From Thermoplasmata archaeon (lineage in GTDB: Archaea; Thermoplasmatota; Thermoplasmata; RBG-16-68-12), in assembly GCA_035637195.1 (NCBI GenBank), contig DASPXQ010000088.1:1-42437 (forward strand): a DNA stretch of 42,437 nt, read 5' to 3'. The number at the start of each line of letters is the position of its first letter. The stretch's first letter is position 1. Shown one piece after another: positions 632 through 22,210 of the stretch. The notes beneath the pieces are model-generated. The model was not told the origin of the DNA, made no database searches, and saw only the letters and a program-made list of their open reading frames with translations. The position numbers were made by a program, and so were the translations under genes.

Positions 632-3600
632 GTGACGCTGCGCGCGCTGCGCGTCGTTGCAGGTATCTGCGCCGTCCTGATGGTCATCCTTGTTTTCCAA
701 GCCGTCCAAGCGGACGTCCCGAACACCGGTGCGAACGAATTCAACCATGCGCTGGCCCGCCACGGCGCCGTCGCGGACGCCTCGGGCTGGTTGGGGACGA
801 ATCCGCCGAGCCTTGCCATCGATGGAGCCGCGAGCACCTATTGGAAGAATTCACAGTACACCGGGTCAATCCAAGTTACATTCCCCGCGAAGGCGTACAT
901 CAACGAGGTCCACGCCCACTTCCTCTCGGTAAAGTACCCCTCACTCTCCCTGTACTTCGACACGAACGGGAATGGCCAGTACGAAGCCGTGGAGAAAGTT
1001 TGGTCCACGACCACGAACGGCGTCCTCGATGTCAAGATCACCACGTCGACGTACTACACGCTCGGCATGCGGCTCACGATCGACGCGAAGGTGGGGAAGA
1101 ACCTCGCCCAGATCGCGGAGTTCGAGGCGTACCTTCGGTACGATACCGACGGCGACGGCCTGACGAATCAGCAGGAAACGTCGACGGTCTACTTCCAGGA
1201 CATGAAGCCCGCGGGGTTCCCTCGGTCGATCCCGGACGACGGGTCGAACGCGACCGCGAGCGCGACGTCCCTTGCCGCCTTCGCCGGCGTGCCGGTTAGC
1301 GCCCTCGCGAACTTCACGGTGGACCATCCGATCAAGGCGCAGCTCACGGCGGCGGTCGGTTATTGGAACGGGTCCGCGTGGGTCGACCGGTTCATCTGGG
1401 ATCCCGGTGGCCAGACGGGCGGACAGGAGGGACCGGGGCCGACCCCGCTGAACGCAACAGGCGGCACGTCGGCTCCCTCCGCGGTCCTCGGGCTCCGGAC
1501 TGCAGAGTGGTCCTCCGGCGAGACGGACACGGGAACCGTCGCGACGGTGGTCGTGAACCTCACGGGCGCCAAGGCACTCGCGACTCCCGCGGAGACCGCG
1601 GCGGGCATCATCCGTCCGGAATTCCCGGCGGACTCCTTCCAGACCTACCTCCAGTGGCGGCTCCTTGTCCAAGATCGGGTCCTTGGCACCGCCGGCTCCC
1701 TGATCTCGTTCGTCCTCCGGTTCGAGAGCCACAGCGACGCCGCGAAGGCCGACACGGACGGAGACGGCATCGGCGAGGCGGTCGAACTCAACACGTACGG
1801 GACCTTGCCCGTTGCCGCCGATTCGGATCTCGATGGCCTCCCGGATGGATACGAGGTCGCCCCGCACACCCTCACGATCACGGGCGGCAGCCGCACGACG
1901 ATTTCCTTCGCCGGCACGTGGGGCGGCTCCCAGGGCCTCAGCTTGGGGCCCTCCAAGTCGCTGATCTTGGGAAACGTCAGCGGCGTTCAGGGGGACCTAT
2001 TCGTCCTGGCGTTCGGGGTCGCAAAGGACGCGGGCGTCATGGAGAGCGTCACGGACGACGTCGGGTCCGCGTGGACTCGCGTCGTCAATGTGTCGAACTC
2101 CGGGAATGTTCACCTCGAGATCTGGACCGCCTTCAACGCCGGTCCAACCCGCGCGATCTACGTGAAGCCCAGTGCCGCGAATCTCAAGATTACGATCATC
2201 TTGACGCAGTACGCGGGCGTCGGATCCGTGGGCGCGACGGGCACGGGAACGGGATACGGCGTGACGCCCGCGGCGACCGCGCGCACGACGCAGCCGAACG
2301 CCTGGGTCGTCGGGGAGACCGCGGCGCAGGGGACCCGCTTGCCGGCCGCGGCGAACGGGACCCTGCGGGCGAGCGTGGCCACGAGCGGCTCTGCGGCATC
2401 GAGCAACGTCGGCGGTGCGGCCTCCGACATCCTCGTCATCACCCCGCGGGACCAGCAAGTCAAGTATTCGCTGGGAGGCTCGGAGAACTGGGTCGCCGCA
2501 GCCGTCGAACTCGACCCCGCACCGAGGCCCGACTCCGTGATCGTCCTTCCCGCGTTCACGACGGACCCGACGAAATGGGACACGGATGGGGACGGCCTGA
2601 GCGATGGCCAAGAGCGCGGCAACGTCTCGATGGGTCAGACGAAAGTGGTCGGCGAAGTCGGCGTCGCGCGGAACGTCGGAGACGGTTGGACGACCGTGTA
2701 TCTGAGAAACAAGTACACCACGCCGGTCGTGATCGCGGAGCCCACGACCTCCCGAGATCCCGCGTTCAACCACGCGCGCATTCGAGCCGTGTCGGACCAT
2801 ACGTTCCAGATCAAGGTGGAACGGTGGGCGGGTTCCGGCGCCGCCGAGGATGTTTCGTACCTCGTCTTGGAAGCCGGTGACCACGTCCTGCCCGATGGGA
2901 CCATCGTGGAAGCCGGCACCGCGTCGATCGGGACCACGGTGTCCTCGATCTTCTTCCGGGAGAGATTCTCGTCGCTGCCGTTGATCCTCGTCCAAACGCA
3001 GACGACGAACGATGGGAGCCCGGTGATCGCGAAGCGGACGAGTTTCCTATCGGCCACGGCGTTCGGCGCCTACCTGAACGCGAACGGGACAGCTCACGGA
3101 GCCGAGGCGATCGGATACGTGGCCGTCACGCCGCAGGTCGATCCCAACGTCTTGGCGACGTGGACCCGGGCGGAGCGCACCTTCTCGACCCCGACGGCCG
3201 CCTGGGCGTTCCCGTCCAACTTCACCGCGCCGCCTCTCGTCCTCGCGTGGATGGCGGGCGAACTGTCGGGCGGCGACAAGAACATCGGGCTTCGCCTCAC
3301 GGCCGTGACGAACGCGAGTGCGTCGATTTACCGCGAGCAGGTCGGGAGCGGCGCGATGGACGTGATCGACTTCTTCGCCTTCGCCGGGCCGACGAACCTC
3401 ACCGCGCGGATGACGACAGATCCCTTGCGGGTCGACACCGACCGGGATTCTCTGGCCGACGGCCTCGAGGTGAACACCTACGGTTCGAATCCGACGTCGC
3501 GGGATACCGACCGAGACAGCATTCCCGATAACATCGAAGTCTCGGACCGGACGATCACGATTCCGGTCAACGGTGCAATCGGCACGTTCACCTTCAAGAC

Positions 3601-6600
3601 GTCTCCGACATCCGATGACACGGATGCCGACGGCCTGAAGGATCCCGACGAGCTCGCGGGCGTCTTGGACCACCGCAACTTGTTCCTCGACATGGCGACG
3701 AGGACGGGCTCGGGCGATCTCCAAGACCTGAGCGGCAACGGCGGCGCGGGCAACGTCGCCGGCGCAACGTGCACCGGAACGATCCAAGGCCGCGTTGGCA
3801 GCGCGTGCAGTTTCGGCGGAAGCTCGGCCCGTCTGGTCGTCCCGGACTCGGATGCTTTGGATTTCGACCTATCCTTCACGCTGATGGCCTGGGTCCAGCC
3901 GACGACGACCGCGCAACCCGAAGGAGCCGGCATTCTCGCGAAAGGAGTCTCGGGAGCGGAAGCCTTCGCGATGGACATCTCAGGGGGCGCCTTCCGAGCC
4001 GTGGCGACCGCGAACGGGACGCGGATCACCGCCCCGAGTTCCACCCCGATCGTGGCGAACCGATGGTATCTCGTCGCCGCGGTCTACGACGGGCCGAGCC
4101 GAACCTTCACTCTGTTCGTGAACGGATCCCAAGCGTCCCCGGTGACCGGCGTCCCGACATCGCTCACGCCGAACGCACACGACATGAGCATCGGGAGCAA
4201 GGAGAGCTCCTCCGCCTCGGGCTATGACTTGGGTTTCGTCGGGGTCATCGACGAGGTGCAAACGTGGGACCGGCCGTTGTCCGTTTCGGAAATTTCCGCC
4301 TACTACAACCTCACGAGTTCCGCGTCCCCGATCGTCGCTTGGCTGGACATGGGGATCCGGACCGCGTCCGGAGACCTGGCCGATGCGAGCGGCTTGGGCC
4401 ACTCTGGCGTGGCAACGGGCACGACGATCGTTGAGGGCCGTTCCGGCTTCGCCCGGAAGCTTGCCGGTGGCAGCGACGGAATCGCGCTCGTGGGAACCGA
4501 ACCGGTGAGCTTCGCGAACGGTGCGACGGTGTCGCTCTACGTCCTCGTATCCGCGTACCCGTCGATGGACACCTCGCTCGTCTCGAGGCGGGGCTCCCTC
4601 TACCTCAACTTGACATCGGACGGCCGCGTGATGTGGACGAACGACAAGGGCTCGAGCCTCGTGAGCCCGAGTTCAATCGGCCTGAATCGGTGGGTCCGGA
4701 TTGCCGCCACGGCGAGCTCGAGTACCCTGACGATCTATGTCGATGGCCTCCAAGTAGCGTACGGCCCCGGAGGGGTCCCACCCACCCCGCCGACGCCCTC
4801 GCCGCCGATCGTCCTGGGATACGCGGAAGGATTGTCCCATCTCTCGGGTAGCCTCGACGAAGTTCTGATCCTCAACGCGGTCCCGCAGTCGGCACGGACG
4901 TTCCTCGACCTCGGCGCGCGCGGAATCCAGCTGAATCCGAACGCAACGGACACGGACGGCGATGGCCTCGCAGACGGGCAGGAACTCGTCGTCCAGGCGT
5001 TCAAGACCGCGAAGCGATACCCGCTGCCCGAGGACTCATCTGCGACCGCCCGTCGGCTCGACATGACGGGCTTCCGCTATCCGGCATGGGCGATCCGGGG
5101 AATCGAGCTCATGGTCGGCTTCACGCATCCGAACATGGGCAACGTGTCCGCGACGTTCGGACACCTGACCTCCGACTCCCCGACGGCGCCGCAAGACCAC
5201 CTCTTCGCCTTCCGACCTGCAAGGTCCAATGTGGGCGAGGCGAACAACTTCACCTCGTACGATCTTCTCCAGAGGCCGGTTTCGTCCGGCGACACTTGGT
5301 ACGTCCCGGCCGATTTCACGTCCTTCGCGCCCTTCTGGTTCGTCAAGGGAACAGCGAACCTAAGTGCATACGACCATGGCCAGCTCGAGTACGCCCAAGT
5401 GCAGTTCACGGCCTCGACACTCCCGAACCGCAACGACACAGACCGCGATGGGCTCAACGACTCCGAGGAGGTCAACCCCGGGTCCGACGGGTTCCGGACG
5501 AACCCGTGGGCCGTCGACACGGACGCGGATGGCGTGGGGGACGGCTTGGAATCTGGCGGTTGGTCATTCTCCGGTCCATCGATCGGACCCGACCCTGGCG
5601 GGTTCCGCACGGATCCCACCCGGATTGACACGGACCGGGATGGCATTCCGGATCGAAGGGACCGCATGCCCCTCGGCGACGGGTTCGTCCTGATCAGCAT
5701 CCTTTCCGCCTCGGTCGTAGGCGAGGACCCCCACAACCCCGGGAACGTCACGAAGCCGTTCGTGAAGGCGACGATCTCGGGCAACGACACGTACACCCCG
5801 TACCTCCAGAACGGCACGGGCTCGTGGAACACGACGTGGAACGGCGAGACCCTCGAAGGTCACCGACTCGCGGTGGATGTGCCGGACGACCAGATGTCGA
5901 TTGACTTCACGGTTGCGATGTGGTCGTACGATTCAAGCGGAGCCGACAACCACACGGCCATCGGGATTGCGAGGGAGCATTTCGGAGGCGAATGCTACGA
6001 CGTGAACGAGGTCACGCGGACCTACGAGATCGGCTCCGTGGGCGGGTCGACGAGGTACGAGTTCGCGGGCGGGTGTTCCTCCCTCTACGCGGACCCCCTC
6101 GTCGTCGTGGTCTCGACGATCGCCCCTGCGCGGGTGGGGTCTCGGCTCATCCTGCCCTTGGATTATTCCGGCGTGTACAACGTCACGGATTCCGCGGGCT
6201 CGATCCTCAGCCGCCGATACGTCGGCGAGCCTCGGTTCGTGGCCCTCGTGCTGAACGTCACGTCCACCGGAGACTGGGCCTGCGTCACGCCGGACGGGTG
6301 CGACGACGCGCCGATCGGCCCGAAGGTCCTGTTCATCCCGCGGTCCGTGTTCCACGACACGTTCTTAGGCAAGAAACTCGCCGACGGGAACAAGACGGAC
6401 GTGCCGGATAACCTGTCGTTCTACCAAAACGGCACGGGCTCGAACAACTCCGATGCGTTGCAACAGGTCATCGCGGGGAACGTCACCGCCGACGAGTACT
6501 TCCGGATCCTCGGATGGCTCCTGCGGAACGGGACGGGCAATGCGACGAACCGCGTCGTCAATGAGACAGGCGACCTCTTCCTGTACAGCCTCCCGGACGA

Positions 6601-7696
6601 TGCGATCCGCCTCGTCGGCTACCGGCCCATCCCGGTGGCCAAGTCGGTCAGCTACCGCTTCTGTCCGCCGGGCGGCTGCGTCGAGCCTCCGCCGCCGCCG
6701 TGGTGGGAGCAAATCTGGCGCGGGATCGTGATCGTGGCGACGTTCATCCTCTCCGGAATCCTGTTCGTCGCGAACGCCTTCGTGCAACTCGGGAAGATCC
6801 TCGTCGCGGTCGGATCGTGGATCATCGCGCGTATCGTCGACCTGATCAACCTCGTCGCGAGCGCGCTGCAGGCAGCGGCGAAAGCCCTCGACCAACTTGC
6901 CGACTGGCTTGTGAAATTCGCAGTAGGTCTCTTCAGTACCATCTTCCAACCTATTTTGGACAACCTCAAGGCCGCGCGTCTTCTCCTCGGCCTGGGCTTG
7001 CTCGACGCGATTGAGAGAGCTCTGCTCGGAATCAAAAATGGACTCGATCCAGCGGTCGTTTCTTCGAGCTTCTCCAGAGACCTGGGGGCAGCTGTCTCGA
7101 CCATCCTCTTGATAGCCACCCTAATCGCTGTCGGATTTGCAATCGCGGTGGTCGCGCTTGCGCCATTCAGCTGGGCGATCGCGCTAATAGCGATTGCTGT
7201 GGTCGTCGGGATCGGAATAAGCTTGTTGGGCGCGTCCAGCCAACCTGTGAGCCTTACACCGATGGTCATCGCACCCGGCTTAGGAGCCGACCAAGTGGTT
7301 GGCACTACAATCGGATTCATTGGAATTGAATGGACCCCGGAGCTGAAGCGCGCCTTGGTCAGCGTCATAATCGGTGGTTGGGGGGTTGTTATCGGGACAG
7401 TCGGATTGTCGAAACCCTTGGGTGTAGGCGCGCTCGTTCTTGGGATCGCATCCTTGCTGATTTCGTGGGCCGCTGTTGGCGCAATCGCAAGCTTCCTGTC
7501 ATCCTACCAAGTCGAGTTGGCTACAATACTCTCCGCTGGGACGGCAATTGCCTCCATGGTGCTTGGGATTCCTTCGCTGTTCACCCCGCTGTACCCTCTC
7601 GGCCTCATATCCATCGCGCTTGGCGTCGTCGCAATACTTGTATCGCTGAATATCTTGCTGCCGCTTCGAATCAACTTACCCCAGGCTATTCGGTGA
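632..7696 (+). CDS. Giant (2354 aa) secreted adhesin-like surface protein with discoidin-like, TSP3-repeat and LamG modules and a multi-TM C-terminal module
   Basis: GTG start preceded by GGAGGG. Signal peptide MTLRALRVVAGICAVLMVILVFQAVQA. F5/8-type-C-like segment (AIDGAASTYW). At least 11 thrombospondin type-3-like Ca-binding repeats (DTDGDGL.D..E, DTDRDS..D, DTDADG). Two LamG/ConA-like modules (about nt 3680-4310 and 4330-4880). Numerous N-x-S/T sequons. The last ~330 aa are hydrophobic helices. Confidence 0.9.
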   Translation: MTLRALRVVAGICAVLMVILVFQAVQADVPNTGANEFNHALARHGAVADASGWLGTNPPSLAIDGAASTYWKNSQYTGSIQVTFPAKAYINEVHAHFLSVKYPSLSLYFDTNGNGQYEAVEKVWSTTTNGVLDVKITTSTYYTLGMRLTIDAKVGKNLAQIAEFEAYLRYDTDGDGLTNQQETSTVYFQDMKPAGFPRSIPDDGSNATASATSLAAFAGVPVSALANFTVDHPIKAQLTAAVGYWNGSAWVDRFIWDPGGQTGGQEGPGPTPLNATGGTSAPSAVLGLRTAEWSSGETDTGTVATVVVNLTGAKALATPAETAAGIIRPEFPADSFQTYLQWRLLVQDRVLGTAGSLISFVLRFESHSDAAKADTDGDGIGEAVELNTYGTLPVAADSDLDGLPDGYEVAPHTLTITGGSRTTISFAGTWGGSQGLSLGPSKSLILGNVSGVQGDLFVLAFGVAKDAGVMESVTDDVGSAWTRVVNVSNSGNVHLEIWTAFNAGPTRAIYVKPSAANLKITIILTQYAGVGSVGATGTGTGYGVTPAATARTTQPNAWVVGETAAQGTRLPAAANGTLRASVATSGSAASSNVGGAASDILVITPRDQQVKYSLGGSENWVAAAVELDPAPRPDSVIVLPAFTTDPTKWDTDGDGLSDGQERGNVSMGQTKVVGEVGVARNVGDGWTTVYLRNKYTTPVVIAEPTTSRDPAFNHARIRAVSDHTFQIKVERWAGSGAAEDVSYLVLEAGDHVLPDGTIVEAGTASIGTTVSSIFFRERFSSLPLILVQTQTTNDGSPVIAKRTSFLSATAFGAYLNANGTAHGAEAIGYVAVTPQVDPNVLATWTRAERTFSTPTAAWAFPSNFTAPPLVLAWMAGELSGGDKNIGLRLTAVTNASASIYREQVGSGAMDVIDFFAFAGPTNLTARMTTDPLRVDTDRDSLADGLEVNTYGSNPTSRDTDRDSIPDNIEVSDRTITIPVNGAIGTFTFKTSPTSDDTDADGLKDPDELAGVLDHRNLFLDMATRTGSGDLQDLSGNGGAGNVAGATCTGTIQGRVGSACSFGGSSARLVVPDSDALDFDLSFTLMAWVQPTTTAQPEGAGILAKGVSGAEAFAMDISGGAFRAVATANGTRITAPSSTPIVANRWYLVAAVYDGPSRTFTLFVNGSQASPVTGVPTSLTPNAHDMSIGSKESSSASGYDLGFVGVIDEVQTWDRPLSVSEISAYYNLTSSASPIVAWLDMGIRTASGDLADASGLGHSGVATGTTIVEGRSGFARKLAGGSDGIALVGTEPVSFANGATVSLYVLVSAYPSMDTSLVSRRGSLYLNLTSDGRVMWTNDKGSSLVSPSSIGLNRWVRIAATASSSTLTIYVDGLQVAYGPGGVPPTPPTPSPPIVLGYAEGLSHLSGSLDEVLILNAVPQSARTFLDLGARGIQLNPNATDTDGDGLADGQELVVQAFKTAKRYPLPEDSSATARRLDMTGFRYPAWAIRGIELMVGFTHPNMGNVSATFGHLTSDSPTAPQDHLFAFRPARSNVGEANNFTSYDLLQRPVSSGDTWYVPADFTSFAPFWFVKGTANLSAYDHGQLEYAQVQFTASTLPNRNDTDRDGLNDSEEVNPGSDGFRTNPWAVDTDADGVGDGLESGGWSFSGPSIGPDPGGFRTDPTRIDTDRDGIPDRRDRMPLGDGFVLISILSASVVGEDPHNPGNVTKPFVKATISGNDTYTPYLQNGTGSWNTTWNGETLEGHRLAVDVPDDQMSIDFTVAMWSYDSSGADNHTAIGIAREHFGGECYDVNEVTRTYEIGSVGGSTRYEFAGGCSSLYADPLVVVVSTIAPARVGSRLILPLDYSGVYNVTDSAGSILSRRYVGEPRFVALVLNVTSTGDWACVTPDGCDDAPIGPKVLFIPRSVFHDTFLGKKLADGNKTDVPDNLSFYQNGTGSNNSDALQQVIAGNVTADEYFRILGWLLRNGTGNATNRVVNETGDLFLYSLPDDAIRLVGYRPIPVAKSVSYRFCPPGGCVEPPPPPWWEQIWRGIVIVATFILSGILFVANAFVQLGKILVAVGSWIIARIVDLINLVASALQAAAKALDQLADWLVKFAVGLFSTIFQPILDNLKAARLLLGLGLLDAIERALLGIKNGLDPAVVSSSFSRDLGAAVSTILLIATLIAVGFAIAVVALAPFSWAIALIAIAVVVGIGISLLGASSQPVSLTPMVIAPGLGADQVVGTTIGFIGIEWTPELKRALVSVIIGGWGVVIGTVGLSKPLGVGALVLGIASLLISWAAVGAIASFLSSYQVELATILSAGTAIASMVLGIPSLFTPLYPLGLISIALGVVAILVSLNILLPLRINLPQAIR
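6701..7693 (+). other. C-terminal multi-pass membrane module of the giant protein (about 9-10 predicted TM helices, Gly/Ala/Ile/Val-rich)
   Basis: Begins after PPPPWWEQIW. Runs such as IVIVATFILSGILFVANAF, ILLIATLIAVGFAIAVVALAPF, LIAIAVVVGIGISLLGA, VIIGGWGVVIGTVGL and LGLISIALGVVAILVSLNILL. GC is visibly lower from about nt 6900 (sampled 60-nt lines are about 50%, against about 65-68% upstream). Confidence 0.6.
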
Positions 7697-8184
7697 TGAG
7701 CTTGCTTCCGGCGAATGAACCCCAAGACTCCGCGAGGAGGATGGTTAACGCTGCGAGAGAAAGACTTCGCTGGGTAGACTCCCTAGCCTCCATCGTTGTC
7801 CTTCTTGCAGTCCTCGGTTTCGTGGGTCTCTCCAGCGTTCTGACGACCGAAGGAAGCGCGAGCATCACCAATCTCGTGATTGTCATCATCGCTTTCATAT
7901 GGATCCCTCCCGTAGCCCATGTGGCGCAGTCTCGTGTCACTCCGAAATATGTCTACGTCTCTCGCGATTCCGTGGGCTGGTCGTCTTCTGAAACAGCGGA
8001 CACTAGATTTGTGCACAGACGGGATCTCGTCAATGTCACCAGGCGGACGAAGTCTGAGGCCCACCGCCGAGCGACGGTTTGGATAGAGTTCGACCTTGCT
8101 CCAAAGTCAATCCTCGCTAGGCGACGTTACATCGCTGTATCGGATGAAATCGCGAGTGCGATCGCCCAGTGGTGGCGAGGCTGA
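7696..8184 (+). CDS. Small membrane protein, 2 TM helices plus C-terminal beta-rich (PH-like) domain; paralog 1 of tandem array
   Basis: An internal ATG of track ORF 7330..8184 overlaps the stop of the giant gene (TGATG at 7694-7698), indicating translational coupling. TM helices are SLASIVVLLAVLGFVGLSSVL and ITNLVIVIIAFIWIPPVA, followed by PKYVYVSRDSVGW...RDLVNVT. Confidence 0.7.
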   Translation: MSLLPANEPQDSARRMVNAARERLRWVDSLASIVVLLAVLGFVGLSSVLTTEGSASITNLVIVIIAFIWIPPVAHVAQSRVTPKYVYVSRDSVGWSSSETADTRFVHRRDLVNVTRRTKSEAHRRATVWIEFDLAPKSILARRRYIAVSDEIASAIAQWWRG

Positions 8185-8413
8185 AATCAAGGAACATCCC
8201 GTGGACCATCTGCTTGTACGGCGCTGCTCCGGACGCTGGCGGCTTCTCGGCGGACGACCTCGGCGTCCAGTCGCTGTTGTCGGCATTATCCGTGCGATAC
8301 CCGTCCTATAGCCATTGAATATTGTCGGAGTGATTCTGAATCTGATCCTAGCCGGGCTTGCCTTCGCCGGTTTCGCAGCTGCGGTGGCGCACCTAGTGAG
8401 AGCTAGATGACGA

Positions 8414-9082
8414 ATGGGGCGGACCAACGGAATGCAGAATCAAAGGCCCATCCGCTTGGCAATCAACGGGTCTATGGTCTTTTGGTTCATCGCGATTCTC
8501 ATCGGCCTGTTCGTGATCCCGGCCATCGGCGCACCACTTGCGTTCACTTGGGCCGGTCTCCTCACAATCGCAGTAATCGGCACGTTCATCATACTCCACT
8601 TCCAGCCTCTCTCGATTGAACTCGCCGACGAGACCCTGCGCGTGCGGTGGCTCCGTCGACGCCGGAATGTGCAATCGTCGTCCGTGCGGACCTACGCGTT
8701 CCTCGTCGATCAGAAATACCTGGGAAGGGATTGGCCCGCGAGGTTCTATTCCCTGCACGTGTACCTTCTGAATGGCCGGAGGATCCTCGTGGGGGGGATT
8801 AGAGGGGCCCGTCGCGAAGGTCCTCCTCGAGAGGCTGCCCTCGAGCAAGTCCGAGCTTCGTGTCTACGCTGGCAGGCGTCGGCTCGAACTTCGACCGGTA
8901 GGGCTTGGCTGATCTCCGGATTCCGTATGTGGTCTTCGATTCGAGCGAATCCAACGACCCCGTGCGGTGGGGATCAGAGACCGGCCATAGCCGTGCATCT
9001 TCCTAGCGTCCATCGGTTTCGCAGTAGGCGCGATTGCATGGTACTCCGCAGTCAATATCTTCAGCAACATCTGTTGAGGTGA
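8414..9082 (+). CDS. Small membrane protein, 2 TM helices plus PH-like domain; paralog 2 (the C-terminal ~80 aa looks non-protein-like)
   Basis: TM helices MVFWFIAILIGLFVIPAIGA and FTWAGLLTIAVIGTFIILHF, then QPLSIELADETLRVRW...VRTYAFLV. The tail after about nt 8850 is Arg/Ser-rich and may be read-through. Confidence 0.55.
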   Translation: MGRTNGMQNQRPIRLAINGSMVFWFIAILIGLFVIPAIGAPLAFTWAGLLTIAVIGTFIILHFQPLSIELADETLRVRWLRRRRNVQSSSVRTYAFLVDQKYLGRDWPARFYSLHVYLLNGRRILVGGIRGARREGPPREAALEQVRASCLRWQASARTSTGRAWLISGFRMWSSIRANPTTPCGGDQRPAIAVHLPSVHRFRSRRDCMVLRSQYLQQHLLR

Positions 9083-9169
9083 AGTCACGAATAGGAGCCT
9101 GACGGGAGTCATGGTGCCGCCGGGCAAGATGAACGGCTGTCCAACGCACCGACGGTCGCCTCCTTCGCA

Positions 9170-9571
9170 GTGATTGGAGTCATCTTTGTATTCGCCGCCC
9201 TCCTCTTGCTCTCCGAGGGGCCACTGCGAACGGGGACGTTGGCAGACGCTTCGTACTACCTGGTGCTCTTCCTATTTGTCGCGATGGCGCTTGCCCTCTT
9301 TGTTGCGGCTTTCCAGTTCCCCTACGCTGTGGAAGTCTCTAACGAGGGTTTGGGCCTCAGGTACATTCACCGAAAAGAGATGGTACCGGCTGCCCGAATT
9401 TCGATGATTGAAGCCCGGGGAGGGTTCGTGGGTCGTAGCTGCTGGATCGTGTTTGCAAACGGAGAAGCTAAGCCGATTGGGATAAGGAACCGACGTCTGC
9501 CGGAACGCTGGCGCCGCTTCCATGCGCACGCGGCGACCCACGACGCCAATAAGGACCGATCCCGATACTGA
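9170..9571 (+). CDS. Small membrane protein, 2 TM helices plus PH-like domain; paralog 3
   Basis: GTG start. TM helices IGVIFVFAALLLLS and YYLVLFLFVAMALALFVAAF, then QFPYAVEVSNEGLGLRYIHRKEMVPAARISMIE. Same architecture as the two preceding genes. Confidence 0.65.
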   Translation: MIGVIFVFAALLLLSEGPLRTGTLADASYYLVLFLFVAMALALFVAAFQFPYAVEVSNEGLGLRYIHRKEMVPAARISMIEARGGFVGRSCWIVFANGEAKPIGIRNRRLPERWRRFHAHAATHDANKDRSRY

Positions 9572-9824
9572 TGTCGCCGAGCGCATGTGACCGCGGCTTT
9601 ACGGAAGCGAAGGTTCGCGCTACTGGCGCTCGAATTGCAGAAGCCGGGGTCAGTGCAAGCGTCTTCGTATTGGCCGAGGCGTACGGGACAGCGAATTCGG
9701 AAGGCGTCTTCGCGGTGGGCCGCGCGTCGGGACCGTTATCGCTCTCGATTCCGAGCCCGTCTGAATTATCTATCCCCCGGGAGGGTGCCCGAGCGGAGGT
9801 AACTCTGCCACGGCCGGCAATCGA

Positions 9825-10286
9825 GTGTTTCGCCTCCGAAACCGGAGTCCCCTCGTCTTCGCATTTCTGAGCGCTGCCCTCCTCCTCGCCACCGCGCCCG
9901 GTGCCCTCGGGGCAACGCACCACTCTTGGATGCCCCCTTCGTACCATGTGCCGCCGTTCGGTGCGGATTCGGGAACCGTGACCCCGCAGGTCGCCCCGGG
10001 AGGCGCATGGACGTTCGTCGGCAACAGCTCGGTCGGCGCGGACTACCACGGTCTCGCCTACGATTCAGGAGCGGGCGTGTTCATCCGATTCGGTGGGATT
10101 CAGGCGGACGGCACGACGGTGACCTTCAAGATCCCTTCCGCGGAACTCAAGACCGTGCAGCCGTTCACGGTCACGTCGGGGATGACGACCGTCCTGACCC
10201 TCCGCGTCGATCTAGCCCGCTCGATCGTGCTCCACGGCTCCGCGGCGAACTTCACTCCGGTCCTCGGAGCGATCGGGATCATCTGA
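9825..10286 (+). CDS. Secreted protein with a DUF4382-like C-terminal beta domain (short form)
   Basis: GTG start and signal peptide SPLVFAFLSAALLLATAPGALGA. The C-terminal GTTVTFKIPSAELKTVQPFTVTSGMTTVLTLRVDLARSIVLHGSAANFTPVLG aligns by eye with the C-terminus of the 21671..22210 protein. Confidence 0.7.
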   Translation: MFRLRNRSPLVFAFLSAALLLATAPGALGATHHSWMPPSYHVPPFGADSGTVTPQVAPGGAWTFVGNSSVGADYHGLAYDSGAGVFIRFGGIQADGTTVTFKIPSAELKTVQPFTVTSGMTTVLTLRVDLARSIVLHGSAANFTPVLGAIGII

Positions 10287-10633
10287 CGATTTGGCCGCAC
10301 AGCGGGTATGCCGCAATAGGAGGCGTCGAGGCCGCGGGCAGACTGTCCTGCGAGCGCTTGCGTCGCGCGTAGGGGGCTCAGCGCTCCGAACCGAAACGTC
10401 CGAGGGAATTACGCCACGGAGACTGCGCGGCGATGCTCGGCACGTGTGGGTCCCGAAACACATCTACCAGCCTCGGTCCGCGCTTGGGCGATTGTTCTCG
10501 ACATAACGTCCTCGGGGCTCCCACGCCCGTCCACTTTCTGAAATGGCTCTTCGCGCTCGGCTATCCGCACCACGCGGGAAGCGTGAGCAGCGGATGGGGA
10601 ACGGTTCCGGCAAAGGCCGCTTCGGGGCGACCC

Positions 10634-12007: not shown

Positions 12008-12577
12008 ATGCGTTCGCGTGATTCTGACGTCGCCGGATTGAAGTACCCACGGCCTCGTCGCACGGACGTGGCGTCGAGCACCACGAGCCTCCTGGACCTG
12101 GACCCGATCGCCTACTTCGCGATGGGCGGATTCGCGCTGTTCTTCGGCCTCTTCTTCCTCGTGTTCCTCTGGGACATCCCGCTCTTCTTGTACCTCTGTG
12201 GCCCGGTGACGTTCATCCCGGGCGTCATCGCGGTGACGATCGGGGTCCGCCAGTGGCGGCGCGAGCGGGCGGTCCTCGAGTTCGTGGAGTGGGTTAAGTC
12301 CCAGCGGCGGATCAAGATGGACCTCATGGCGCAGCGGATCGGCAAGACGCGCTACGAGACGGAGAAGCTGCTCGGCAAGGCGCTGGACAAGGGCTTCGTG
12401 AAGGGCGCGATCGACCGCACGACCGACGAGTTCGTGCTCGAAGAGGCCGTGAAGCAGGAGCATTTCGTCGGGCAGTGTCCCCATTGCGGCGGGAACGTGG
12501 ACACGTGGTACTTCCCGGAGGAACGCGTCTCCTGCCCGTACTGCGAGCGGGCGATCTCCGTCCCTGCGAACGCGTGA
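12008..12577 (+). CDS. Membrane protein with 2 TM helices, a winged-helix-like segment and a C-terminal CxxC..CxxC zinc ribbon
   Basis: TM helices IAYFAMGGFALFFGLFFLVFLW and FLYLCGPVTFIPGVIAVTIGV. Next comes VLEFVEWVKSQRRIKMDLMAQRIGKTRYETEKLLGKALDKGFV (wHTH-like), then CPHCGG...CPYCER. Confidence 0.65.
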   Translation: MRSRDSDVAGLKYPRPRRTDVASSTTSLLDLDPIAYFAMGGFALFFGLFFLVFLWDIPLFLYLCGPVTFIPGVIAVTIGVRQWRRERAVLEFVEWVKSQRRIKMDLMAQRIGKTRYETEKLLGKALDKGFVKGAIDRTTDEFVLEEAVKQEHFVGQCPHCGGNVDTWYFPEERVSCPYCERAISVPANA

Positions 12578-12596
12578 GTGGGGCAGGTCGCCACCC

Positions 12597-12603
12597 TTAT
12601 ATA
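12597..12603 (+). promoter_or_regulatory. TATA box (TTATATA) of the rps12-rps7-aEF-2 operon
   Basis: TTATATA lies 40 nt upstream of the rps12 TTG start at 12643, in the gap after the upstream gene. Confidence 0.5.
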
Positions 12604-12642
12604 GCACATGGATTTTAGAGCGCACCTTCCGAGGAACCTCCT

Positions 12643-13071
12643 TTGGCCCGCGGCCTCTTCGCAGCGCGTAAGCTCAAGAACGAACGGCAGACGAGACGCT
12701 GGTCCGACCGGTACTACAAGAGGCGCGTGCAGCACCTCAAGGAGAAGTCGGACCCGCTCGAGGGATCGCCGCAGGCGAAGGGCATCGTCCTCGAGAAGGT
12801 CGCGATCGAGGCGAAGCAGCCGAACTCCGCGCTGCGGAAGTGCGTGAAGGTCCAGCTGATCAAGAACGGCCGGCAGGTGACGGCCTTCGCCGTCGGCGAC
12901 GGCGCGATCAACTTCATCGACGAGCACGACGAAGTCCTCGTCGAAGGGATCGGCGGGCGGATGGGGCGATCGTACGGGGACATCCCGGGCGTGCGTTACA
13001 AGGTGATCCAAGTCAACGGGGTGTCGCTCGACGAACTCGTGCGCGGCCGGAAAGAGAAGCCCGTGAGGTAG
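12643..13071 (+). CDS. rps12: 30S ribosomal protein S12 (uS12)
   Basis: The product reads [25 protein letters not shown]...[24 protein letters not shown]...[18 protein letters not shown], a textbook archaeal uS12. TTG start. Confidence 0.95.
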
Positions 13072-13075
13072 GCCG

Positions 13076-13846
13076 ATGGAACCCGAGCCGACGCCCCCTC
13101 CGGAGACACCGCCACCGCCACCGCCGCCTCCTGAGGCGCCGCCTCCGCCGCCCGAGGCCGCGCCGGCCATCGAACCCGCGGCGACGACGGAAGGTCCTCC
13201 GGAAACCGCCGCAGAAGGCGAGCCGGCTCCGGTCGTCGAGAAGCCCAAGCGCGAGCCGAAGAAAGCCAAGAAACGGCCCAGCTATGAAATGAAGCTCTTC
13301 GAGAAGTACGACCTGAACGAGGTGGTCGTGCACGACGCCGGACTCGCGAAGTACATGAACCTCTCACCGATCGTCATCCCACACACGGGTGGGCGGTACG
13401 CGAACAAGCCGTTCGGCAAGGCCAAGTCGAACCTCGTCGAGCGGCTGATCAACGGCATGATGCGCACGGAGAATTACACCGGAAAGAAGGCGAAGTCCTA
13501 TCGGGTCGTGCGCACCGCGTTCGAGATCATCGCGCAGAAAACTGGGAAGAACCCTGTGCAGATCCTCGTCGATGCGCTCGAGAAAGCCGCGCCCCGCGAG
13601 GAGATCACGCGCCTCCGGTTCGGCGGCATCAGCGTGCCCCGCGCCGTCGACGTCGCCCCTTCCCGACGGCTCGACCTCGCCCTGCGCAGCATCACGACCG
13701 GGGCGGTCTCGGCGACGTTCAAGAACCGCAAGCCCGTCGAGGAGTGCCTCGCGGACGAAATCCTCATGGCGGCGAAAGGCGACATGCAGAGCTCCGCGAT
13801 CGCGAAGAAGGAGGAGCTCGAGCGGGTCGCATCCTCCGCGCGATGA
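13076..13846 (+). CDS. rps7: 30S ribosomal protein S7 (uS7) with a 71-aa Pro/Glu/Ala-rich N-terminal extension
   Basis: The canonical archaeal uS7 begins at MKLFEKYDLNEVVVHDAGL (ATG 13289). The ORF opens at ATG 13076, 4 nt after the rps12 stop, with GAGGT 6 nt upstream. The extension reads MEPEPTPPPETPPPPPPPPEAPPPPPEAAP...KREPKKAKKRPSYE. Confidence 0.85.
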   Translation: MEPEPTPPPETPPPPPPPPEAPPPPPEAAPAIEPAATTEGPPETAAEGEPAPVVEKPKREPKKAKKRPSYEMKLFEKYDLNEVVVHDAGLAKYMNLSPIVIPHTGGRYANKPFGKAKSNLVERLINGMMRTENYTGKKAKSYRVVRTAFEIIAQKTGKNPVQILVDALEKAAPREEITRLRFGGISVPRAVDVAPSRRLDLALRSITTGAVSATFKNRKPVEECLADEILMAAKGDMQSSAIAKKEELERVASSAR

Positions 13847-13925: not shown

Positions 13926-16900
13926 ATGGGACGTAAGGAAGAAAATATCAAGAAAGCCCAGGCGTTGCTCCACCTGAAGGACCGCATCCGCAACATCGGC
14001 ACCGCGGCACACATCGACCATGGCAAATGTTGTCATGGTAGCACGCGGATCTGGGTCAGCGGCGAGTGGGTAACCGCTGAGAACCTCTGGGCCCGCTTCG
14101 AAAATCTTTCTGCCGTTCCGAACGCTCACGGCGCAGAAGTCAAGGATCTGATCCATGAGGACCTGTGGACTCTTTCGCTCGACGTGCGTTCAGGCAGGAC
14201 TCAGTTCTCGCAAATTACTCACGCTTGGCGACTTCCTGCCACGGAGCCACTCGTCGAAATCGAGAGTCGCGACGGGAGAATCATCCGGACCACTCCTGAA
14301 CATCCGTTCGTCGTCGGATCGGAACAGTCGCTTCAATTTCGAGCTGCTCGTGATCTCAGGAAGGGGGATGTGCTTGCGGTCCCGAGGACACTGCCATCTC
14401 AGGGCGACGGCGAGAATTGGGCAGATCTGGAATCAGAGATGGTACTTCGCCTTGCGGAAGATCCGAATTTCTTGTTCAAGCTGACGGATCCCGGGGAACA
14501 AATCGCGAAGGAGAGCGGTGCCATCCGCGGGGAATCTCTTCTCGCGAGATTCAGGGAGCTCGCGACACCGCCGGCGAGCATCTATGAGTTTGTGGAATCA
14601 ATCTGGTATGAGCCCTGCAAGACTACGAGTCGAGCGTCCCGACCGATTCGCCTGCCGAAGCGAGCCGAGCTGGAGGAATTCTTCTGGTTCGTCGGCCTTC
14701 TGTACGGCGACGGGGATGGGAATTGCGTCATTACCGGGGCCGATAAGCAGCTCCTGACCCGAGCCCTCCGATTCATCAGAAAGCTATCTCCGGGCGCGAG
14801 TCTTGCGCGCGATTCCGGGCGGCCAATCTACAGGCTACACCCTGGCTCGAATAGTTTCGTTCAGCTCATGCATTCCCTGTTCGGGTACCCGCTTCGACGC
14901 AAGGCGTGGAGCATCCGGTTACCGAGTCAGTTGCACACGGCGCCGCTACCCTTGGCTGCGGCGTTCATCCAAGGATACCTAGATGCAGACGGGACCGTTG
15001 AGAAGGCGCGCTCCGCCGTTTCGGCGACGAGTGTGTCCGAACCGTTCCTGGATGAGCTCCAGCTCCTCCTCTTACGGTTCGGTGTGAGGGCAATCTTCAA
15101 CCGGGAGAGAGGCCGCTCAACGCTCTACGTTTCGGGTCGACGGAATCTTTCACGCCTTCCGGATTTCAGTGACCCTAGCAAGGCCTCTCTTCGAAAGAAA
15201 CTGGAGGCTAAGTCGAAGACCTCCTACGTCGTGGACCTGTTACCCGTGAGATGGGAACGGATACGGCCAAACGACTACAAGAGTCGCTTTTACGCGCTGG
15301 CCAGCGAGCGCCCGTCGATCCGGTCCTTGCTACTGATGGCGGGTCCTGACATCGCAGCGGTCGAACACCTCATGAATGAAGATGTGGCGTTCGTTGAGGT
15401 GAGCCATATTCGGCATACTCGAACAAAGTGGGTATACGACTTCTCGGTGCCGGGCCCGAAGAACTTCGTAGCGGAAGGCTTCTTCATCCACAACACCACC
15501 CTCTCCGACTCCCTCATCGCGGGCGCGGGGATGATCTCCGAGGAACTCGCGGGCCAGCAACTCTTCATGGACTACGACCCTCAGGAGCAGGAGCGCGGCA
15601 TCACGATCAACGCGGCCATCGCGTCGATGGTCCACGATTTCGAGGGCGGCCAGTACCTCATCAACCTCATCGACACGCCCGGCCACGTCGACTTCGGCGG
15701 GGACGTAACCCGTGCGATGCGGGCCATCGATGGCGTGATCATACTCGACGACTCCGTCGAAGGGATCATGCCGCAGACGGAGACGGTCATCCGTCAGGCG
15801 CTGAAGGAACGCGTGAGGCCCGTCCTGTTCATCAACAAGGTCGACCGCCTCGTCAACGAGTTGAAGATCAGCCCGGAGCAAATGCAGCAGCGATTCCAGA
15901 AGATCATCATGGAGGTCAACAATCGCATCCGGAAATGGCTGCCCGAGGACCTCGGAGAGAAGTGGATGGTGAACGTCGAGGCGGGCAGCGTCGCGTTCGG
16001 GAGCGCGTACCACAAGTGGGCCGTGAGCGCCCCCTTCACGAAGCGGACGGGCATCGGGTTCAAGGACATCTACAAGCACTGTCAAGAGGGGACGATGAAA
16101 GAGCTCGCGAAGAAGGCGCCTCTCCACAACGTCGTGCTGAACATGGTCATCCGTCACCTGCCGAATCCGCTCGAAGCACAGAAAATCCGGATCCCGATCA
16201 TCTGGAAAGGAGACCCGCAGTCGCCCGTCGGCAACGCGATGATGACGGTCGATGAAAACGGTCCCGTCGGGTTCATGGTGACGAAGATCATCGTCGACCC
16301 CCAGGCGGGCGAAGTGGCCGCCGGTCGCCTCTATTCGGGCAAGATTCGCCGGGGCCAAGAGCTGTGGGTCAGCGGGATGCCGAAGCCCCAGCGCGCGCAG
16401 ACCGTCGCGATGATCGTCGGCCCGGACCGCATCCCGGTCGACGAGATCGACGCGGGGAACGTGGTCGCGGTGGTCGGCCTGCGGGACGCGGTCGCCGGCT
16501 CGACCGTGAGCGACGACAAGGAGATGCAGCCCTTCGAGAAGATCGTCCACTACTCCGATCCGGTCGTCACGATCGCCGTCGAGGCGAAGTCGACGTCGGA
16601 CCTGCCGAAACTCGTCGAGGCGTTGCGCCTGCTCGCAAAGGCGGATCCGAGCATCCAAGTGGAGATCAACCAGGAGACCGGGGAGCACCTGATCTCTGGG
16701 ATGGGCGAACTCCACCTCGAGATCACGATCTACCGCGTTCAGAACGACTACAAGATCCCCGTCACGACGAGCACTCCCATCGTCGTCTACCGGGAGGGCG
16801 TGGGCGGCAAGGGCGGGCCGTTCGAAGGCAAGTCCCCGAACAAGCACAACCGCTTCTATATGGAGGTCGAGCCGCTCGAGGAGAAGGTCGTCGCCGCGAT

Positions 16901-17591
16901 CCGCGCCGGCGAGATCGCGTCCGGCCAGCGCATCAAGGATTCGAAGGTCCTCGCGAAGAAGCTCGAGGAGCTCGGGATGGACCGGAACGACGCGAAGAAC
17001 GTCGTGTGGATCCAAGACACGAACATGCTGCTCGATGCGACGAAAGGGATCCAGTATCTCCACGAGACGATGGAACTGATCAAGGAGGCCTTCACGGAGG
17101 CGATGAACCGCGGCCCGCTCGCGGCGGAGAAAGGCATGGCGTTGAAGGTGAGCCTCGTCGACGCGAAGCTCCACGAGGACTCCGTCCACCGCGGGCCCGC
17201 GCAGGTCATCCCCGCCGCCCGATCCTCGATCTACGGCGCGATGGTCCAGGCCGGACGCATCTTGCTGGAGCCTGTCCAGAAGGTCTTCATCAACGTCCCG
17301 CAAGACTTCATGGGTGCCGCGATCGGCGACATCCAGAGCCGCCGTGGCGTGATCGAGGACATCAGCCAGGAAGGGGAGATCACGGTCATCCACGCGAAGG
17401 CGCCGGTCGCAGAGATGTTCGGCTTCGCCTCCGCCATCCGGTCGGCGACGCAGGGACGCGCGCTGTGGTCGACGGAGAACAGCGGCTTCGAGGCCGTGCC
17501 GGGGAACCTTCTGTCGGAGGTCGTCCGCGCGATCCGCACGCGGAAGGGACTACCGCCGGAACCGTACGACGAAGCGTACTACTCCGCGTGA
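13926..17591 (+). CDS. fusA: Translation elongation factor aEF-2, intein-containing precursor (732-aa extein plus 489-aa intein)
   Basis: The G1 motif AHIDHGK is interrupted. The sequence resumes [12 protein letters not shown]...[13 protein letters not shown]...DTPGHVDF...NKVDR and continues with full EF-2 domains to the C-terminus. Confidence 0.95.
14028..15494 (+). mobile_element. Intein with LAGLIDADG homing endonuclease, inserted in the P-loop of aEF-2 (after AHIDHGK)
   Basis: Starts with Cys ([14 protein letters not shown]). Block B is TTPEHPF. Two LAGLIDADG motifs ([11 protein letters not shown] and [11 protein letters not shown]). Blocks F/G are [21 protein letters not shown], followed by the +1 Thr. 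GC is visibly lower than in the flanking extein. Confidence 0.9.
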
Positions 17592-21670: not shown

Positions 21671-22210
21671 TCACGCGACCGTGATGTGGCCGAGGACCGG
21701 GGTGAAGGTCCACGTGCCCGAGGCCATCACGATCGACCGGGACAGGTCGATGTCCACGGTCAGCGTCGTCGTGCTGCCCGAGCGGATCTCGAACGTCGTC
21801 GTCGTCTTCAGCTCGCCGGACGGCACGGAGAATGTGATGGTCGTGCCATTCGCTAGCTGGCCGGTCGCGCTGCTCACGACAATCCGAATCTGCGTGTACT
21901 TTCCCGGCGCGAACCGAGCGTTCGCGAGCAGCTCGGAGATGTTCACGAGGGACGCCAAGTCGACCGTCGTCCGCGCCAGCGTGACGTTGTGCCAGCCGAC
22001 GTCGTCCGCCTTCCCGGCCTCGTGGGCCCAGACGTCGGTGAAGGTCACGTCCACATGGGCCCAGTCGCCGACCGCGTCCATCACGCGGACGTCCAGCTCG
22101 CCCTCGTACAGGTAGACGTAGGCGGCGAATCCGCCGAGGACGAGGGCCGCTGCGAGGACCAGTGCGATGAGAGCGCGTCGCATGTCCATCCTCCGGACGT
22201 CCGGTTGCAT
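21671..22210 (-). CDS. DUF4382-family membrane-anchored or secreted protein
   Basis: N-terminal anchor RRALIALVLAAALVLGGFAAYVYL. Also GKYTQIRIVVSSATG...TITFSVPSGELKTTTTFEIRSGSTTTLTVDIDLSRSIV...FTPVLG, matching the DUF4382 pattern as I recall it. Confidence 0.7.
   Translation of the reverse strand: MQPDVRRMDMRRALIALVLAAALVLGGFAAYVYLYEGELDVRVMDAVGDWAHVDVTFTDVWAHEAGKADDVGWHNVTLARTTVDLASLVNISELLANARFAPGKYTQIRIVVSSATGQLANGTTITFSVPSGELKTTTTFEIRSGSTTTLTVDIDLSRSIVMASGTWTFTPVLGHITVA

Follow-up and report, generated by a model that had tools for sequence, protein, structure and literature searches.

A candidate polymorphic effector/immunity locus with exchangeable polytopic tail cassettes in a soil archaeon of the Thermoplasmata type

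The giant gene, its tail and the small genes downstream

The DNA studied here, referred to below as the window, comprises 42,437 nucleotides of contig DASPXQ010000088.1 from a Thermoplasmata archaeon (GenBank assembly GCA_035637195.1). It carries a gene for a giant surface protein of 2354 amino acids (positions 632-7696; all features lie on the forward strand unless stated otherwise), followed by three genes for small membrane proteins, designated here s1, s2 and s3. The host is a soil archaeon of the Thermoplasmata type. The window also contains an archaeal S12-S7-EF2(intein)-EF1A operon, and the related loci found in reference genomes stem from soil metagenome-assembled genomes (MAGs) that bear the label Thermoplasmata archaeon or Methanobacteriota archaeon. 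We are confident that the locus has a cassette-switching architecture, in which the C-terminal tail of the giant protein is modular, is linked to a small partner gene, is stored in orphan form and is switched by recombination. On the sequence evidence, we lean towards reading it as a polymorphic locus of the effector/immunity type, here in an archaeon and with cassettes that can be exchanged.

The giant protein, delineated by its open reading frame (ORF), Pfam matches and hydropathy, begins with a hydrophobic segment (residues 1-30, MTLRALRVVAGICAVLMVILVFQAVQA; positions 632-721; hydropathy 2.47) that is probably a Sec signal peptide or anchor. Two Laminin_G_3 stretches, the best-scoring domain of which spans residues 1063-1222 (3818-4297; E = 3.3e-38), are accompanied by bacterial TSP3 repeats, and Pfam has no match in the last 800 residues. 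Family alignments reveal a conserved domain ahead of the first transmembrane (TM) helix (6143-6700), with the motifs DYSGVYNVT, RRYVGEPRF, PRSVF, LPDDAIR, CPPGGC and PWWEQIW; this pre-TM domain is part of the constant region of the protein and is kept in the orphan fragments described below. The first TM helix itself (residues 2030-2052; 6719-6787), recognized by hydropathy, still belongs to the constant part and has a high G+C content at third codon positions (GC3). It is followed by the junction motif A-L-Q-A-A-A-K-A-L (6863-6889), at which alignments place the border between constant and variable parts, and by a variable polytopic tail of about 268 residues with about six hydrophobic segments (6890-7693; GC3 0.63), which we term class A. 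A preliminary description of this DNA had counted nine to ten helices in the last ~330 residues. By hydropathy there are seven to eight hydrophobic segments, and a low-confidence structure model has eight helices; the accompanying statement that the region is more than a single anchor remains valid. Strict GxxxG motifs occur only three times in the tail. As had been described, the stop codon of the giant gene (TGA, 7694-7696) overlaps the start codon of s1 (ATG, 7696-7698) in the sequence TGATG.

The s1 gene (7696-8184) encodes a protein of 162 residues with two TM helices and a C-terminal soluble domain. Its frame is open from position 7330 (7330-8184), overlapping the end of the giant gene, and one called protein (P0026, 251 residues) includes this extension, which is most likely a gene-calling artefact. 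Two TM helices and a β-rich domain are encoded by each of s2 (8414-9082; other callers start it at 8432, giving 216 residues) and s3 (133 residues; 9170-9571). The last 73 codons of s2 (8861-9079) are rich in Arg and Ser, have a GC3 of 0.56 and do not resemble coding sequence; s2 may in reality end earlier, or this stretch may be a decayed remnant, and we found no similarity of these codons to any tail or constant region.

Base composition sets the tail and the three small genes apart from their surroundings. In the frame of the giant gene, GC3 amounts to 0.81-0.95 up to about position 6810; from about 6840 onwards it stays at 0.57-0.70 until the gene ends, a step from ~0.85 to 0.63 that lies near 6824-6860. 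The last 277 codons have a GC3 of 0.635, while every other window of 277 codons reaches at least 0.794 (mean 0.847, standard deviation 0.024). With a GC content of 0.578, region 6860-9600 lies below all 684 further windows of its size, the minimum of which is 0.597. GC3 values of 0.62-0.67 were obtained for s1, s2 and s3, as compared to 0.74-0.94 for all other tabulated genes of the window (the value of 0.74 belongs to a doubtful minus-strand ORF at 12352-13269). The tract of lowered GC and GC3 (6824-9600) corresponds to the cassette region formed by tail A, s1, s2 and s3. A fall in GC at about position 6900, continuing through the three small genes to about 9600, had been claimed from sampled lines of 60 nucleotides; two of these indeed have GC contents of 0.50 (7021-7080) and 0.48 (7861-7920), against 0.67-0.68 upstream, and the break proved significant when computed with GC3 and GC windows, sits at synonymous sites and extends through the small genes as described. 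Its placement had to be revised, since the drop occurs only behind the first TM helix, once ~45-55 codons of the hydrophobic region have passed. The amino acid composition of membrane proteins is not the cause of this third-position drop, because the polytopic MFS transporter encoded in the window has a GC3 of 0.90. Just past the low-GC tract lies a gene for a predicted secreted protein of 153 residues (9825-10286; GC3 0.81), a 53% identical partial paralogue of which is encoded on the minus strand at 21677-21862.

Tails, backbones and partner genes among relatives

Word-index searches returned few relatives (three for the tail and four for the small proteins), and scans of metagenomes and genomes yielded ~40 further loci. 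Modularity was assessed with 29 unique tails, each taken with the 250 residues upstream (the backbone) and the ORF downstream. Pairwise identities of backbone and tail were hardly correlated (r = 0.14), nor were those of backbone and small gene (r = 0.13), while those of tail and small gene rose together (r = 0.79). Tail pairs that were at least 50% identical had small genes at least 30% identical in 13 out of 13 cases, and tail pairs below 35% identity in none out of 357. Nine pairs combined backbones at least 80% identical with tails below 35% identity; six pairs showed the opposite combination, with backbones below 55% and tails at least 60% identical. The window and the main giant of locus L007, for instance, share 99% of the backbone and 30% of the tail, and their small genes have no similarity. 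The main giant of L007 and locus L012 have backbones 47%, tails 75% and small genes 41% identical; the corresponding values are 38%, 76% and 69% for L015 and the main giant of L013, and 34%, 77% and 75% for the orphans of L011 and L013. Tail A is 57% identical to that of P0001/L005 and less than 31% identical to all other classes, and backbones of close strains are 98-100% conserved. In each of the seven pairs inspected, the switch in identity lies within ~15 residues of the junction motif, which is helical and has the family consensus S-A-[V/L]-Q-A-A-A-K-V-L, and in most loci the small gene starts -3 to +12 nucleotides from the stop codon of the tail. A fixed combination of one tail with one backbone is not kept among the relatives; the tail varies apart from the backbone, and these data lend genetic support to the polymorphic toxin/immunity-like gene layout that the preliminary description had proposed.

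The same co-variation identifies s1, as far as sequence can tell, as cognate to the class A tail: in L005, the 57% identical tail is followed by a homologue of s1 with 33-35% identity. Among the three small genes only s1 is demonstrable as cognate. No tail adjoins s2 or s3 in any of the fetched loci; both genes are intact without an adjoining tail and are classed here as predicted orphan partner genes. Most partner proteins of the family consist of two TM helices and a subsequent domain of 70-100 residues; 2-TM proteins with only 81 or 98 residues also occur, and one protein of 106 residues is hydrophobic throughout. Some but not all partner groups are remotely linked by hhalign, which detected remote homology between the s3 group and that of L011_182 with a probability of 88%. 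Single members gave matches to bPH_6 (E = 0.0024), bPH_10 (E = 0.0053), bPH_7 and DUF2244, all of them sub-threshold, and eight further members had no bPH match. The architecture of the partners, with two N-terminal TM helices and then a β-rich domain, fits that of bPH proteins; the AlphaFold 2 model of s3 has a predicted local distance difference test (pLDDT) score of 53.

The drop in GC3 is not peculiar to the window. In nearly all family members represented by the 29 tails, GC3 falls after the junction from 0.84-0.96 to 0.61-0.78, and the partner genes have likewise low values. Recent acquisition from a low-GC donor in one event is therefore insufficient as an explanation, and the composition break characterizes the pool of cassettes as such. 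Exchange between lineages, fast turnover or weak codon selection are possible causes of the low GC3 of this pool.

The wider tail family became visible only by exhaustive profile search, which yielded 175 cluster representatives with a tail; in the profile hits listed, the best-matching tail stretch lies at or near the C-terminal end. Some of the tail-bearing giants possess ectodomains built from PKD or fn3 arrays together with TSP3 repeats. This suggests, at the level of sequence profiles, that the first TM helix, the junction helix and the polytopic tail form a recurrent ending of giant surface proteins. P0148, P0079 and P0120, giants of 2200-3100 residues with PKD/fn3-type ectodomains, have the same pre-TM motifs, first TM helix, junction helix and tail, and P0148 at least is, by eye, rich in Asn, Ile and Lys, as if it came from an organism with lower GC content. 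A further observation concerns a syntenic site in two soil MAGs (L016 4310-12398 and L018 9329-12806), which is situated away from the S12 operon and has shared flanking genes for a membrane protein, a hydrolase and a peroxiredoxin. One of the two sites carries a full giant of 2418 residues and a partner of 282 residues with two tandem soluble domains, and the other only a C-terminal giant version of 732 residues and two partners.

Orphan cassettes and the crossover interval

Locus L008 (contig WNFZ01003422.1) represents the same chromosomal neighborhood in a very close sister strain. Its giant carries a different tail, class B, with a partner of 98 residues, and is followed by two orphan fragments and then by s2, s3, the 153-residue gene and the genes for MFS, S12, S7 and EF-2. 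Orphan 1 begins at the homologue of giant residue ~1709, is without a signal peptide and has its own tail and a partner of 155 residues; orphan 2 consists of tail A and s1. Orphan fragments, located downstream of the first partner gene, were seen in L004, L005, L006, L007, L008, L011, L013, L014, L025 and L032. They are promoterless and have no export signal, and they keep a piece of the constant region together with their own small gene.

In a three-way alignment, the window is of the L008 main-gene type at 48 out of 48 informative sites between 6295 and 6757, and of the orphan 2 type at 35 out of 35 informative sites between 6824 and 6927. The intervening 66 nucleotides (6758-6823) are identical in the main gene and orphan 2 of L008, so that one crossover within this stretch accounts for the switch. 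The window is without the 4,382 nucleotides by which the two copies of the repeat are separated in L008, and its sequence is exactly the product to be expected from homologous recombination between the giant gene and orphan 2. Both the orphan cassettes and this crossover go further than the preliminary description had proposed. Recombination of this type between main genes and orphans has been shown experimentally for Rhs in Salmonella (PMC3967940) and has been inferred for CDI/Rhs orphans (PMC3150448; CDI, contact-dependent growth inhibition). We found no further remnants of tails or constant regions between s1 and the 153-residue gene, and the rest of the window has no further copy of the family.

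It might be argued that the fusion of the giant gene with tail A is an assembly artefact and that the true genome is L008-like, the assembly having jumped across the 66-nucleotide repeat and dropped 4.4 kb; tail A would then be a silent orphan, to which the TGATG coupling would belong, and the biology of the cassette array would stand. Tail B is indeed present on every independent contig that covers the 3' end of the giant gene (L004, L007, L008 and L009), those contigs that carry tail A have their first base at 6758, 6809 or 7497, so that none spans the junction, and an exact-protein look-up found no record of the exact giant product. No independent contig across the junction of giant and tail A was recovered by this look-up or by the metagenome scan, and the window fusion could accordingly be a jump over the repeat. 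We nevertheless consider such an artefact unlikely. Single-nucleotide polymorphisms separate the window from L008 on both sides of the junction, as does an indel of 58 nucleotides that leaves the giant gene intact in the window and frameshifted in L008 and L007; the window therefore stems from another strain than L008. In addition, the MEGAHIT k141 contig L002 starts exactly at 6758, the first base past the last site that discriminates between main gene and orphan 2, which provides indirect evidence, as a contig should begin there if one tail A sequence followed two upstream variants in that sample. The cassette array itself is real, whether or not the fusion in the window is an assembly jump.

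Several further observations were made on these arrays. The site of the indel corresponds to window positions 5072-5150, where L008 is without ~58 nucleotides (site ~4885) and L007 without ~70 (site ~1099), and gene callers divide the main giant of both loci into two. The site encodes MVGFTHPNMG, the sequence at which many orphan fragments and partial family proteins start (L006 3779; L013 7248-7817; P0007; P0027); recombination may have a second boundary here, or the assembly may be at fault. In the tail B version of L004 (1900-2000), a tandem duplication of 14 residues, in which VGSWIVRQIVAFIDFV is repeated, lies in the crossover/junction region. Compared with window positions 8231-10617, L007 (8360-9236) is without s2, s3 and the 153-residue gene and has instead ~0.9 kb with genes for two other small hydrophobic proteins (70 and 95 residues), indicating that close strains also differ in their array of orphan partners. 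Toxin-antitoxin genes of the HEPN/MNT (NTP_transf_2 and HEPN) and PIN types are situated inside the arrays of L011 (12535-14855) and L013 (6586-7276), between the orphan fragments and the S12 gene. The EF-2 gene of the window (13926-17591; 1221 residues) contains an intein with a LAGLIDADG endonuclease domain (Intein_splicing, residues 71-523), and the EF-2 protein of the more distant relative L011 has 732 residues and no intein.

Known systems and possible functions of the cassettes

Searches of the tail against Pfam, NCBIfam, PADLOC and PDB sequences and profiles gave no family match, and those of the small proteins against Pfam, NCBIfam, PADLOC and PDB sequences gave only the sub-threshold bPH matches mentioned above. 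In these databases the tail thus matches no known transporter, anchor, toxin or defense protein, and the proposal of a swapped effector module was not refuted by a relationship to a housekeeping anchor or transporter family. Archaeal sorting anchors consist of a short tripartite signal and a single TM helix, as opposed to the ~330 residues with their seven to eight hydrophobic segments in the giant protein, and no sorting signal of the PGF-CTERM/archaeosortase type was matched in NCBIfam or Pfam.

The closest parallels in genetic organization are found in the Rhs and CDI loci of bacteria (PMC3150448; PMC3967940). In these, as at the present locus, the body of a large surface protein is constant and is followed, behind a short conserved motif, by a variable C-terminal module. 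A cognate small gene lies directly downstream, as do orphans in which part of the constant region is preserved together with a small gene of their own, and an orphan module comes to be expressed through recombination between main gene and orphan. The locus differs from them in that the host is an archaeon, that the junction lies inside the membrane region, behind a TM helix, and that the variable module is a polytopic membrane domain of ~260 residues rather than a soluble nuclease-like enzyme. No Pfam match at E <= 0.1 to a two-partner secretion (TPS) domain, FHA repeats/haemagglutinin, PT-VENN, CdiB or PAAR was found in the giant protein; RHS/YD repeats were not matched either, and the junction motif differs from PxxxxDPxGL.

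Membrane-acting modules are known among polymorphic toxins. CdiA-CT of Escherichia coli EC93 is a membrane-depolarizing polymorphic toxin with a membrane immunity protein. The same holds for TelE (PMC10434224) and EsxX (PMC12744356), LXG toxins of type VII secretion systems (T7SS). All three resemble the present case in their hydrophobic, Gly/Ala-rich C-terminal module and their small membrane-protein gene, and this precedent makes a membrane-perturbing effector function of the tail plausible by analogy. The tail has, however, no sequence similarity to these toxins, is larger (~6 TM segments) and is fused behind an existing TM helix, so that it is probably integrated into the membrane of the producer first.

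In archaea, the VARTIG proteins of the Thermococcales are large surface proteins whose C-terminal region is hypervariable by recombination and is followed by variable small genes, mostly for membrane proteins; readings as a polymorphic toxin-like or a self/non-self system have been proposed for them (PMC8416519). The variable part of VARTIG (arCOG07710) is an extracellular Ig domain, and recombination was reported between strains rather than within a locus, at sites that could not be mapped (PMC8416519). At the locus studied here, in contrast, the variable part is embedded in the membrane, orphans are stored within the locus and the crossover is confined to 66 nucleotides; no Ig-type Pfam match was found in the giant protein. 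Makarova et al. reportedly predicted, in 2019, archaeal contact-dependent toxin systems that follow polymorphic toxin logic, with soluble toxin domains (nucleases, deaminases, peptidases) said to be carried on RHS/YD or similar scaffolds. We found no published description of a system like the present one in the literature, a search that did not cover the survey by Makarova et al. of 2019. Judged from its sequence relationships, polymorphic toxin logic would here be built from parts without known relatives.

The following picture emerges. A constant part, composed of the ectodomain, the pre-TM domain, the first TM helix and the junction helix, is followed by a hypervariable polytopic tail of ~260 residues, and each tail class is inherited with its own translationally coupled gene for a small membrane protein. 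Extra tails are stored downstream as orphan fragments devoid of promoters and export signals, and homologous recombination in the constant region moves an orphan tail onto the full-length giant. In the function proposed for this system, the adhesive ectodomain would draw neighboring cells together; the tail, a putative pore-forming or depolarizing effector, would reach the membrane of the neighbor by cleavage, vesicle transfer or membrane fusion and would harm neighbors without the cognate partner. In the membrane of the producer, the cognate 2-TM protein would act as immunity protein and keep the tail harmless, and s2 and s3 would be retained orphan immunity genes against the tails of other strains. 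A toxin/immunity function of tail and partner appears to us somewhat better than an even prospect. Only tentatively do we extend it to the notion of a polytopic membrane domain that serves as a weapon, is passed between membranes through transient fusion or vesicles and is neutralized within the membrane by its 2-TM partner; in the same vein, soil Thermoplasmata-type archaea may engage in contact-dependent antagonism or kin discrimination and re-arm themselves from silent cassettes.

Several points weigh against a function in antagonism. The tail would most simply insert into the producer's own membrane via Sec, with no evident route to a neighbor, and there is no secretion or delivery apparatus near the locus, whose neighbors are the genes for MFS, S12, S7 and EF-2. 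Since the same architecture ends distant PKD/fn3 giants, the tail may primarily be an anchor. The AlphaFold models are unreliable (pLDDT 47 for the tail and, as noted, 53 for s3), and the missing contig across the junction of giant and tail A has to be counted here as well.

Tail and 2-TM partner could alternatively form an intramembrane identity pair that serves non-lethal self or kin recognition, without any toxin, and controls whether wall-less archaeal cells adhere, fuse their membranes or exchange DNA, following the logic of IdsD/IdsE of Proteus or TraA of Myxococcus. The co-variation of tail and partner and the swapping of cassettes apply equally to such a pair, the embedding of both partners makes recognition within or between membranes plausible, and the ectodomain is adhesin-like, with TSP3 repeats that weakly match the myxobacterial cohesion proteins CglD and MtsD. 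Against this, protection accounts more readily than identity tagging for orphan partners that occur without a tail, such as s2 and s3; it also agrees better with silent cassettes in which the partner gene is always retained, and toxin-antitoxin genes are present within the arrays of L011 and L013. We therefore view recognition without a toxin as improbable. Least credible of all is a polytopic anchor with an assembly or stabilizing partner, in which viruses exploiting tail and partner at entry drive the diversification of the tail and of an exclusion-type small protein: the phage infection protein PIP/YueB-type receptor, with its long ectodomain and polytopic C-terminus, offers a parallel, many giants with different ectodomains regularly end in this tail architecture, and the locus lies among housekeeping genes with no delivery machinery nearby, but viral pressure would be expected on the exposed ectodomain, which is 98-100% conserved where tails share ~30%, and neither silent orphan cassettes nor strict linkage of tail and partner would be expected of a receptor.

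Contact-dependent competition is well worked out in bacteria and almost entirely predicted in archaea. With its defined junction motif, its defined pairs of module and partner and a crossover mapped to 66 nucleotides, the locus provides a concrete archaeal case that can be tested; it has built-in specificity controls in the cognate s1 versus the non-cognate s2, s3 and 98-residue partner of tail B, and natural strains exist that differ only in the cassette borne on the giant. If the tail is a toxin, it would represent a new effector class, and the way in which a polytopic domain gets from one cell to another would call for explanation; otherwise, tail and partner would represent a new kind of polymorphic membrane identity pair. 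Should the antagonism reading hold true, the locus would be an archaeal counterpart of CDI and Rhs systems made from unrelated parts, with a delivery principle undescribed for any polymorphic toxin. As profile searches suggest that many giant surface proteins end in this tail architecture (175 cluster representatives), the present locus may account for an unannotated element that recurs among archaeal giant genes.

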